Sequence record: NZ_CP025492.2
DNA length: 64,000 nucleotides
Origin: a plasmid
Strand: one strand, 5' to 3'
Positions 6,001-9,000 of this stretch are shown one piece after another. Each line of letters begins with the position of its first letter. The stretch's first letter is position 1. The position numbers were made by a program.

Positions 6001-9000
6001 ATCAAATAAATAGTTAATCCACTCAGCTATTGGTTTTTTATATTCTTTTTCTGATAACAAGAATAATATTTTCTCTTTTTTTGTAACAGCGGCCATGGTC
6101 TGTTCGGGTAGCTCATATCCCCGCATTAAATCTAATTGATCTGACAGCTCTTTTACGTGTCTAAGGATAAGCCATGTAGGTTTGGCGTCTTTGTCAAGAA
6201 ATAAAAAACTACCTGAGTTATCAACTAGATAATACTCAACAGCCTGTGCTTGTATTAGAACACTAGCAAATAATTTTTGATATAATTCATTATCAAATAA
6301 ATTATTAATGGAGTTTTCATACGCATTAACTATATTTTTTGTTAACTCTCTGAAATAGCGCTGAGTTAGGTCATCCACAGCTAATGTAATTTCTGGATAT
6401 AGATTTTCACTTGTCTTGAGTATAAATTTATCAATTAAACCGTGATTGAAAGCTTTTATCGCAGTATCTTTATCTGCTTCAGCCGTTAGCATAATTTTAA
6501 AGATTTTTTTCTCTTTAATTTTTTTGCAAAATTCAATTCCGTTAATACCGGGCATTTGATAGTCCACAACTAACAATGGTGCATTCTCAAACCTTGCTTT
6601 ATGATAAAGCTGATTTAACATGTTACTAACATCAAAGCCAATAACTCGATCATTAGTAGTATCTAAATTCACATCATTCATTAATTTGAAAATTGATTGG
6701 GTGATATCTTGACAATCGTTATCAATAAGATGAAAAGCCATATCTGAGCTTGTAAGTGTTAGTATATTAAACTTTTGGCCAAATTCTAAATCTAACGCAT
6801 CCAAAAATGCTCTGTTATCATCTAAAAAAATGACTTTTATCGGATGATAAAAACAGGTAGGTCTTGCATCAATAATAGTCATATAGTAATTCCTCTACGT
6901 TACAGCCACAATTGCATCACCCATGATAAGTTGCCAATATTTCAGACCTTTAATTATAATGTATTGCTGTTAAGAAAAAATAATTAACATGGATGTCGCC
7001 CTGTATAATAAATGATTCTTCAAGTTTTTTCCTCCCAAATTTTATATTTAATCACTTAAGTTATTGAGATTTATGTTTTTCCGATTAAGTTAGAATCCTT
7101 TCTTGTTAATCTTCTTCAATTTACTCTAGAATTTTCTTTCTCATAAATCTACACCATTCCACAACCGTTAATTAAAGAATTAATTATATTTTTATTATTT
7201 ATAATCAATGAGTTAACGATATTATCCCCCGGGGACAATTTATTAAATCGATAATCCATAACAGTGGTCCCGTGAAATTTAAAGTGCCATTAAAACAGAT
7301 CCAGGATTAAATTTAATAAAATTCAAACGGCCCAAAACAAAAAAATATCAAAGACAATTAAGAGCATCACAAACCCTTTAAAATTTAGCACACTAAAGCC
7401 TCACGTTACGATTGAACTGCTTTTTCTAGGATTAATGTAATAGCCATTGCTTCAACATTAAAAAGCCTGATTAAATTAGGAGAATAAATTTAGTAGAGAA
7501 ATCCATCTATTCCATCAAAATAAAAGATTTAATATAATGCCCTGAGAGATATAGGACTATTGTTAAATAGGTTATTGAAAAATAACAAACGACACAACCA
7601 TTTATCTTGATAATAAGCGCATAGCTATAAAAAAGATTTGTCCACTTAATCAAAAACACAAATCTCAGCCAAACAATATATTCTTCGCCATGGGTAAAGA
7701 TAGATAAAACAGATAACTCTATACGAAGACTAATATTACCAACATATATTGCTTAACAATCAATATTCTAAATATGAATTAATCATATACACTGGCGCAG
7801 ATGGGAAAACAGTTCTTTTATTTTTGACATTTAGCTTACTAAAGGAGCCGTCATTCATCAGATAATGAGATGCTCTATTTATAGAAAGTAATTTATTACA
7901 ATTAAAAATGATATCTAAAACATGAAAATAACATTATCTTATATCCATTCTCGAATTTAGGATATTATCAAAATAAGTCAATAACTTACTCGTAAAAATG
8001 CAAAAAGTATAATTTAATGTAACTTTTGCAATATTACTCTGTCTTCAAGATAAACACATCTATTTGATAGTTGGGCGGTTAGTATAAACGCGCACAAAAC
8101 GCTGGAATAATTATTTTACAAAAATTCACAATGCGAGATACTAATCAAAATTTTAAAGGTACTAGAGTAAAAATCCAGTATCTGTCAGAAGTTTCCGACA
8201 TTAGAAAATGTGGATAAAAGCTAAAAACACCCCATAAAGCTACACCATTACCATATACCTACACCATGACCTCCCATAAAGCCACACATGAAATTTTAAG
8301 TCCCATTAATCCCCATATTACTACACACAAAAACTCATAAACCTACACTATCAATCCCAAATAAATACACAATAGCTCTTATATAAATCATTTAAAATCA
8401 TATGGTTATGATGTTTTTATTTGATGAACTTATGAATAGAAGAAAAAAGATATATATTTTCCTTTTTTTAGAATTAAGATGAATAGTACAAATTACCGCT
8501 TGCAAATTTGTTTCAATAAAGTTAGTCTAAAAAAATAGTACAAAGCACCTTATTGCAAAGGGGGATGGATGAAAGTAATTACAACAGCCGGAAACAAAGG
8601 AGGGATTGGCAAATCAACTATTGCTCTCACTCTTGCACAATATCTAGCTAAATGTAAAAACATGAAAGGGGCCTTTATCGATTTAGACCCACAAGGCAAC
8701 TCTTCATCTAGCTTAATTCCGACTACAAGAGATCCAGCTCACCCAACTGGTTACATGCCTAAAGCACATCCAGAGTGGGATCCAAACAACTTACCAGAAG
8801 ATGATCCTCATTGGGATGGAGTTAGTAGTATTGCAGATATATTCATAGGTAAATCTATTTATCCATATCCAACATGGGTTGACAATTTACATTGTTTTCC
8901 TTCTTTTGCTTCATTATTGGAAGATGCACAACGTGTTCTAAAAGTTGATGTAAAAGAAAAGGTTATAAATCGTCTTAAAGAATTTACCGAAATGCTATCA

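Follow-up and report, generated by a model that had tools for sequence, protein, structure and literature searches.

Replication origins served by Rep_3-family initiators, as exemplified by those of pPS10, pSC101, F (ori2/RepE), R6K (gamma/pi) and P1 (oriR), join a winged-helix initiator to tandem direct repeats (iterons) about two helical turns apart, beside which lie an AT-rich region, a site for the integration host factor (IHF) and a DnaA box. Here we describe a 64,000-nucleotide stretch of a plasmid (sequence record NZ_CP025492.2; hereafter the window), in which 1.7 kb of DNA devoid of sizeable open reading frames (ORFs) precedes a parA gene and the partition operon that it heads. We propose, with a probability of roughly three in four, that the 3' 360 bp of this region (8209-8568) constitute the vegetative origin (oriV) and control region of a resident Legionella plasmid, the oriV being of the Rep_3 iteron type.

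The closest described counterpart is the Coxiella plasmid QpH1, in which the DNA separating CBUA0036 from parA, with its AT-rich region and four iteron-like repeats of 21 bp, has been proposed as the origin (Luo et al., bioRxiv 10.1101/2020.03.22.001875). A fragment spanning CBUA0036-0039a replicates autonomously and displaces QpH1; deletion of rep abolishes its maintenance, and the canonical ParB CBUA0036 is dispensable for maintenance of the mini-replicon (bioRxiv 10.1101/2020.03.22.001875). The same fragment has independently been used as a shuttle-vector replicon (PMC10098735), and transposon sequencing classes the Rep and Par genes of a pLPP-like plasmid as essential (PMC7811196).

Like QpH1 and the near-identical pLPP-type replicon of L. 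pneumophila, which belong to the same order, Legionellales, the locus in the window has a homologous Rep_3 initiator ending a parA-parB operon, an accessory canonical ParB and four to six asymmetric direct repeats of the same motif family, which are spaced by about 21 bp, lie upstream of parA and are followed by an AT-rich block. It differs in that its Rep is only 28% identical, its ParA is short (304 versus about 400 amino acids (aa)), its ParB2 is unrelated, an additional 126-aa gene is present, and the canonical parB is part of the operon, at its downstream end, where that of QpH1 and pLPP is divergent. Furthermore, the 3' half of the iteron reads CTACAC as opposed to GTCNCA, and the window lacks inverted iterons after rep while possessing a lone direct-iteron island 1.1 kb upstream over a long spacer. 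With the classical Rep_3 origins the locus shares all the elements listed above, but its rep gene is located 2.5 kb from the iterons, inside a partition operon and without an inverted half-iteron operator, its iteron spacing is irregular, and its DnaA box is not conserved among relatives.

Anatomy of the iteron array and the adjoining DNA

The comparison covered 12 related replicons from Legionella, Aquicella, Coxiella (QpH1) and metagenome-assembled genomes (MAGs). The window belongs to a clade with the plasmid of Legionella sp. MW5194 (L001), L. fallonii plasmid II (L002) and the metagenome contig L088; the MW5194 and L. fallonii plasmids carry the module along with its upstream DNA at 89-94% identity, and L088 has both as well. 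More distant modules are those of L. longbeachae pLLO, two Aquicella plasmids, pLPP (L006), QpH1 (L007) and six MAG contigs (L008-L013). When genome contigs were scanned with a ParA alignment, generic ParA patterns dominated the output: no more than 6 of the 80 loci proved relevant, and the close Legionella relatives were missed.

The array consists of six asymmetric direct repeats, all on the plus strand, with start-to-start spacings of 19, 23, 39, 22 and 22 bp (Table 1). They share one orientation and lie roughly two helical turns apart. The preliminary description was right about the number of copies, but not about a uniform spacing of 21-22 bp; the irregular spacing is kept, along with the individual variant of each copy, in four plasmids in which the DNA between the copies is variable. 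Against L088 the array shows 91% identity and no indels. Allowing at most one mismatch to CATAWANCTACAC, the window contains 6 matches as against 0.54 expected, and 0 of 100 shuffles reached six or more; five of these matches fall in the array, whose remaining copy has two mismatches. Between the end of the array and the ATG of parA (8569) are 198 bp, such that the repeats lie upstream of this gene, though not directly upstream as first described. A 90% match over 21 nucleotides between 7273-7293 and 8289-8309 (between iterons 3 and 4) is not conserved in the relatives and was set aside as probably due to chance.

Adjoining the array is a block of 18% GC (8371-8475) that falls in the lowest 0.1% of all 100-bp windows of the stretch by GC content and is 77% identical to L088 with no indels, making it a candidate DNA-unwinding element. 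In pLLO, L008, L009, L010, L011 and QpH1 the array is likewise followed by a block that is AT-rich or made up of TAAAC repeats. On the other side, 13 bp from the repeats, is a perfect DnaA box. About one such box would be expected by chance in the window, and it is notable only for its position; its counterpart reads TATGGATAA in MW5194 and L088 (one mismatch) and TCTATATAA in L. fallonii, where the box is lost, and a search within 250 bp of eight more distant arrays found none at seven of them and a one-mismatch match at that of L009. While the presence of the box is confirmed, its standing as a hallmark of the origin gains no support from this comparison, in which it is perfect only here.

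Between the AT-rich block and parA are two direct repeats of about 26 bp, nearly invariant in the four plasmids, in a region (8476-8568) that is 90% identical to L088 with four gap columns. Because relatives, including L012 which lacks a Rep_3 initiator, have palindromes at the same position just upstream of parA, we assign these repeats to control of the par operon and infer that they are likelier a Par operator. A consensus scan for promoters and terminators yielded fewer promoter-like matches than shuffled sequences and no terminator, and did not locate the parA promoter. The cumulative GC-skew minimum of the window lies at 8.6-9.0 kb, a few hundred bp from the iterons, which is weak evidence as it is confounded by the change of gene orientation there and by the C-rich iterons.

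The repeats accompany the initiator

The Rep protein scores 56 bits against Pfam Rep3_C (cut-off 21), matches NCBIfam RepM over residues 72-238 (1e-16), and is 28-32% identical (E-values of 1e-36 to 1e-44) to the Reps of QpH1, pLPP, pLLO and Aquicella; among these related proteins those of pLLO and QpH1 were scanned, and both match Rep3_N as well as Rep3_C. A Rep_3-family (WH1-WH2) initiator is thus encoded in cis. A sequence search of the PDB with Rep gave zero matches. Together with a divergent protein weakly matching ParB_N and a canonical ParB, the latter 46-50% identical to QpH1 CBUA0036 and to the pLPP ParB, these results agree with the earlier account of a downstream Rep_3 initiator plus two ParB homologs.

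One graded family of asymmetric direct-repeat motifs was found in all ten replicons with a homologous Rep (28-58% identity, E-values of 1e-36 or better). The motif reads CCTG(C/T)AAACGTCACA in pLLO, L008 and L010, CCTGTAAACGTCGCA in L009, CCTGCAAATGTCGCA in QpH1, CCTGTAAACGTCCCA in pLPP, CCCATATCCGTCACA in L011, CCTGTAACCCTACAC in Aquicella p3 and CCCATAAAGCTACAC in the window. In contrast to Rep, ParB2 shows no detectable relationship between QpH1 and pLPP on the one hand and pLLO and the window on the other (E-value of about 1), and the ParA type differs as well (400 aa in QpH1 and pLPP versus about 300 aa in pLLO and the window). Consequently, Rep is the sole sequence-specific DNA-binding protein shared in the operon itself. 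The canonical ParB is also common to QpH1, pLPP and the window, and such a protein is expected to bind a palindrome. The converse situation is seen in L012, where the same parA-parB2-hyp module (hyp being the 126-aa gene) is combined with a TrfA-family initiator (Pfam 1.5e-47); repeats of the iteron family were found neither there nor in L013, which has the module and no Rep_3 initiator. Hence the repeats co-vary with the initiator rather than with the neighboring genes, and they do not accompany the Par module irrespective of the initiator.

These observations bear on an alternative that the preliminary description had placed beside the origin, namely that the six repeats are a type I partition centromere and/or operator bound by ParB2 or the 126-aa protein, with ParA segregating the complex and the operon being autorepressed. 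Type Ib centromeres, such as parH of TP228 and parC of pB171, typically lie upstream of parA, their repeats likewise preceding the gene for a short ParA; the window yielded no other clear centromere; and in L010 the array is found on the downstream side of the par operon, a location also used by type Ia centromeres. However, type Ib centromeres are bound by small ribbon-helix-helix proteins and travel with the par genes, whereas the repeats studied here travel with Rep, occurring with unrelated ParB2 and ParA in QpH1 and pLPP and being missing from the copies of this par module that go with a TrfA initiator or have no Rep_3 beside them. They are also asymmetric and direct, without the dyad symmetry suited to a dimer of a helix-turn-helix (HTH) ParB, which typically binds palindromes, and the sites nearest to the parA promoter are other repeats (8482 and 8534).

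Moreover, several relatives possess distinct palindromic arrays in addition to the iterons. In L010, positions 8210-8401, immediately following hyp and adjacent to the array of 21-bp iterons, hold 5.5 tandem units of 35 bp, each with the palindrome AACTCAAGTCACTTGAGTT, which look like a sopC-type centromere. Three AAAGTTAAGTGACTTAACTTT palindromes are present in pLLO, the core AAGTSACTT being common to these and to the L010 array. pLPP (L006 3495-3537) and QpH1 (L007 6981-7024) each carry two perfect or near-perfect 18-bp palindromes of the form AATCCG..CGGATT, 25 bp apart at the parB2/rep junction and reading AATCCGAGTACTCGGATT and AATCCGGAGCTCCGGATT, which are likely the centromeres of these replicons. 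The iterons also move as a unit with an IHF-like site and AT-rich DNA; in L010 this cassette is inverted and is found on the downstream side of the par operon, at a distance from the parA promoter. Single or inverted iterons are also found at the promoters or ends of rep in pLLO, L009, Aquicella p4, QpH1 and pLPP, which fits Rep autoregulation or control sites.

In view of the unrelated Par proteins, the natural swaps, the separate palindromes, the cassette behavior and the iterons adjoining rep, binding by Rep is favored over binding by ParB, and the available sequences favor assigning the repeats to Rep rather than to the partition proteins. A centromere or operator role of the six repeats appears quite unlikely on the same grounds, while the claim of an iteron-type oriV gains support both from the co-occurrence and co-variation of the repeats with a Rep_3 initiator and from the homology of the module to the autonomously replicating QpH1 replicon.

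Table 1. Features of the window discussed in the text (positions are those of the whole stretch)
Feature	Position	Strand	Remarks
Response-regulator gene	5890-6882	-	divergent; Pfam Response_reg
Non-coding DNA upstream of response-regulator gene	6883-7139		84% identical to L088
Lone distal iteron CTCATAAATCTACACCAT	7140-7157	+	exact core match, array orientation; 1091 bp upstream of array
AT-rich stretch	7167-7226		least stable 60-bp duplex of window (nearest-neighbor stability scan)
IHF consensus AATCAATGAGTTA	7203-7215		perfect; pattern match
Palindrome ATTATCCCCCGGGGACAAT	7221-7239		18-bp, GC-core; one copy in window; in conserved island; centromere candidate
Spacer	7324-8208		about 885 bp, fast-evolving, without detectable function
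DnaA box TTATCCACA (+ strand reads TGTGGATAA)	8209-8217	-	sole perfect box in 64-kb window
Six iterons, core CCCATAAAgCTACAC	8231-8370	+	starts 8231, 8250, 8273, 8312, 8334, 8356; proposed Rep-binding sites of oriV
AT-rich block, candidate DNA-unwinding element	8371-8475		18% GC; conserved block at 8434-8469
IHF-like site AATCATATGGTTA	8396-8408		1 mismatch here; perfect in MW5194, L. fallonii, L010
Two direct repeats of about 26 bp, AATAGTACAAA-NN-ACC-N-TTGCAAA	8482-8559 (starts 8482, 8534)	+	parA promoter region; candidate par operator; also centromere candidate
Ribosome-binding site GGGGGA	8560-8565	+	upstream of parA
parA, 304 aa	8569-9483	+	Pfam AAA_31/CbiA, NCBIfam ParA; N-terminal P-loop, no N-terminal HTH
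parB2, 341 aa, divergent ParB	9476-10501	+	weak Pfam ParB_N 4e-6, TIGR00180
Centromere candidate CACTGGCAATTGCCAATG	9540-9557		5' part of parB2; codons may explain
Centromere candidate TTAAGTGATTTAA	10037-10049		inside parB2; codons may explain
126-aa gene (hyp)	10498-10878	+	follows parB2; no family match
rep, 393 aa, Rep_3-family initiator	10904-12085	+	Pfam Rep3_C 4e-15
Centromere candidate GCATGTTAAAAACATGC	11992-12008		end of rep; codons may explain
parB1, 281 aa, canonical ParB	12087-12932	+	Pfam ParB_N, HTH_ParB, ParB_C

The upstream region: a conserved island and a fast-evolving spacer

The region 6883-8568 runs for 1686 bp free of any ORF of at least 60 aa, farther than any other part of the window (the runner-up measures 461 bp), and has zero ORFs of more than 50 aa wholly within it; its GC content is 28.7% versus 35.9% for the window, a modest difference. 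The lack of ORFs and the AT-richness thus hold as first reported, but a function extending over the whole 1.7 kb is not supported, half of it being spacer. The segment 7324-8208 shows only 66-70% identity to L088 with 141 gap columns, while the flanking genes are 95-99.5% identical; in the MW5194 plasmid it is interrupted upstream of the iterons by an IS630 element (L001 5361-6386); and it has no Rfam match and no similarity found in L. fallonii, which has in common only the island described below and the sequence from 8224 onward. Judged by this divergence, it is an unconstrained spacer. The segment 6883-7139 presumably holds the promoter of the divergent response-regulator gene. On the plus strand of that segment, 6931-6960 reads as a sigma-70-like TTGCCA-18-TATAAT (score 11/12; a consensus match only) directed into the ORF-free stretch.

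The island (7140-7323) is 91% identical to L088 with four gap columns, and, as its indels are not multiples of three, it is apparently non-coding. It begins with a lone iteron that is present in all four clade members, respectively 1091, 1100, 2239 (with the IS630 element) and 1574 bp upstream of the array. The sequence of its AT-rich stretch, together with the IHF consensus therein, is conserved in MW5194, L. fallonii and L088, and the palindrome that follows is kept in L088, MW5194 and L. fallonii (AATGTCCCCGGGGGACAAT). A lone iteron distant from the main cluster is reminiscent of RK2 oriV and of the alpha and beta origins of R6K. The distal iteron of R6K has AT-rich DNA alongside and is used via initiator-mediated looping, and that of RK2 serves copy control, although RK2 differs in that its initiator belongs to the TrfA family. 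By this analogy the island could be a second Rep-dependent element, brought to the array by Rep-mediated looping over a spacer that varies from 1.1 to 2.2 kb; replication might truly start there, or start there as an alternative, akin to R6K alpha and beta, or the island could be a handcuffing site for copy-number control; we offer this as a tentative and rather doubtful suggestion. The palindrome of the island may serve one of the two ParBs as its missing centromere, in which case origin and centromere would be coupled.

A related view assigns to the six repeats themselves the role of a Rep-bound control locus (incompatibility or handcuffing) or of an enhancer, with replication starting elsewhere, for example in the island, much as R6K alpha and beta need the gamma iterons. 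The 91% conservation of the island, its presence in all four clade members at variable distance, its combination of the least stable 60 bp of the window with a perfect conserved IHF consensus, and the distal iterons or control arrays known in RK2, P1, F and R6K are all compatible with this view. Yet the cassette of array, IHF site and AT-rich DNA occurs in pLLO, pLPP, QpH1 and L008-L011 without a comparable island over the loci examined, the mini-replicon of QpH1 functions with the array region alone, and the array has a very AT-rich flank of its own; accordingly we regard a start of replication outside the array region as unlikely.

The region had also been considered as a possible source of a regulatory RNA, to which a small-protein gene may be added. 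The long stretch without ORFs and the inward-pointing promoter-like match at 6931-6960 would be in line with either. However, no Rfam family was detected at gathering thresholds over the whole window or at permissive ones over 6800-8650, bar a chance-level match to a microRNA; RNAalifold on three island sequences gave -8 kcal/mol with negligible covariation; and the folding z-scores of the island on the two strands were +0.2 and -0.7. As a result no known structured RNA is recognized, and a search for tRNA and tmRNA found none. With promoter-like matches below those of shuffles, zero terminators, island indels incompatible with a conserved reading frame, and the remaining region poorly conserved and IS630-interrupted in a relative, both possibilities are highly improbable.

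The partition operon and the search for a centromere

The genes parA-parB2-hyp-rep-parB1 are tightly packed, their successive junctions being overlaps of 8 and 4 nucleotides, a gap of 25 and a gap of 1. Homologues of parB2 adjoin parA in pLLO, the Aquicella plasmids and MAGs. The 126-aa protein has no family match in Pfam or NCBIfam, but a homologue of it follows parB2 in all ten other modules examined, three of them within the clade. These homologues measure 110-126 aa (L004 5965-6315, L005 5960-6307 and L008-L013) and are kept even with a TrfA initiator (L012) or an unidentified one (L013); the protein may be a third component of the partition module. The same gene for a group II intron reverse transcriptase/maturase is situated downstream of hyp in both Aquicella plasmids (L003 2276-3529; L005 7207-8460), and in Aquicella plasmid 4 it sits between hyp and rep. 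Just after parB1 are three one-mismatch DnaA-box-like 9-mers within 35 bp (12942-12976); GTGGATAA is kept in MW5194 and L. fallonii, and a conserved -10-like GTTATAATTTTA comes next, at about 13005-13020.

Matches to the canonical parS (TGTTNCACGTGAAACA) in the window are at chance level only. The remaining centromere candidates (Table 1) comprise the island palindrome, the two repeats upstream of parA, and three sites inside parB2 or at the end of rep, of which coding constraint may be the cause. The codons for LSDLT of the putative HTH of parB2 read TTAAGTGACTTAA in MW5194 (L001 8740-8752) and L. fallonii (L002 6807-6819), the very sequence found at the core of the intergenic palindromes in pLLO, while the window and L088 carry TTAAGTGATTTAA instead. 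This site could be an intragenic ParB site or a coincidence.

A model for initiation

The anatomy of the locus, its conservation and the co-occurrence of iterons with Rep are direct observations; on these we base a model in which Rep binding, the unwinding site and the parts played by IHF, DnaA and the island are inferred. The initiator, a Rep_3-family protein whose gene lies 2.5 kb away in the downstream operon, would bind as monomers to the six repeats at 8231-8370; host IHF (at 8396-8408) and, in this plasmid, possibly DnaA (at 8209-8217) would help to open the 18%-GC block 8371-8475; and the helicase would be loaded for theta replication. The repeats at 8482-8559 would form part of the parA-parB2-hyp-rep-parB1 operon, likelier as the Par operator, and the supply of Rep would be set via the par promoter. 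The island would offer Rep another target, probably with a part in looping or in the control of copy number, and the 885 bp between it and the array would be a spacer. This arrangement resembles the repABC operons of Alphaproteobacteria, where the initiator gene is likewise co-transcribed behind parA and parB homologues, so that Par autoregulation would set initiator supply. But RepC is an unrelated initiator with the origin inside repC and no iterons, and a counter-transcribed RNA lies between repB and repC, for which the window has no room.

Several points weigh against placing the origin at the array. The iteron spacing is irregular, the 39-bp gap included, and no inverted iteron overlaps a promoter in the window. 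The window motif matches that of QpH1 or pLLO at just 8 of 15 positions, and the homology of the repeats depends on the intermediates L011 and Aquicella p3. The DnaA box, from the comparison above, does not appear to be a conserved feature of the family. The start site could lie in the island, which has its own iteron and the most meltable DNA of the window. The site upstream of parA is one where type Ib centromeres also lie, and the window's own centromere was sought with no clear one found. In MW5194 the rep gene (L001 9607-10787) is annotated as two ORFs, hence probably disrupted, so that this plasmid at least may be maintained by another replicon. Lastly, iteron mapping for any Legionella plasmid was not found in the searchable literature, and the origin of QpH1 has itself been proposed rather than mapped (bioRxiv 10.1101/2020.03.22.001875).

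Plasmid backbone and a probable replicon exchange

About 13.6-64 kb of the window is collinear, at 90-93% identity, with pLPP-type Legionella plasmids (pLPP NC_006365), whose replicon is of a different type from that of the window. No chromosomal gene turned up, the annotation having covered the window in part. As the backbone is collinear with plasmids of a differing replicon type, the window appears to be a segment of a resident plasmid whose replicon has been exchanged; of the two options left by the preliminary description, an integrated or a resident replicon, it is the resident one that fits better. The difference in module type points to an exchange of the replicon at one and the same position, adjoining the integrase and recX genes.

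Implications

These results furnish a concrete origin map for a little-studied Legionella replicon, with proposed iterons (8231-8370), a candidate unwinding element (8371-8475) and operator candidates (8482-8559). No new kind of system is revealed, the locus being a divergent replicon of the type already proposed for QpH1. Possible uses of the map include the construction of stable shuttle vectors, the incompatibility typing of Legionella and Coxiella plasmids, and the reading of replicon swaps among pLPP-like plasmids. More generally, the origin proposed for QpH1 is seen to belong to a wider Legionellales family, in which the iteron motif follows Rep and the partition modules are exchanged.

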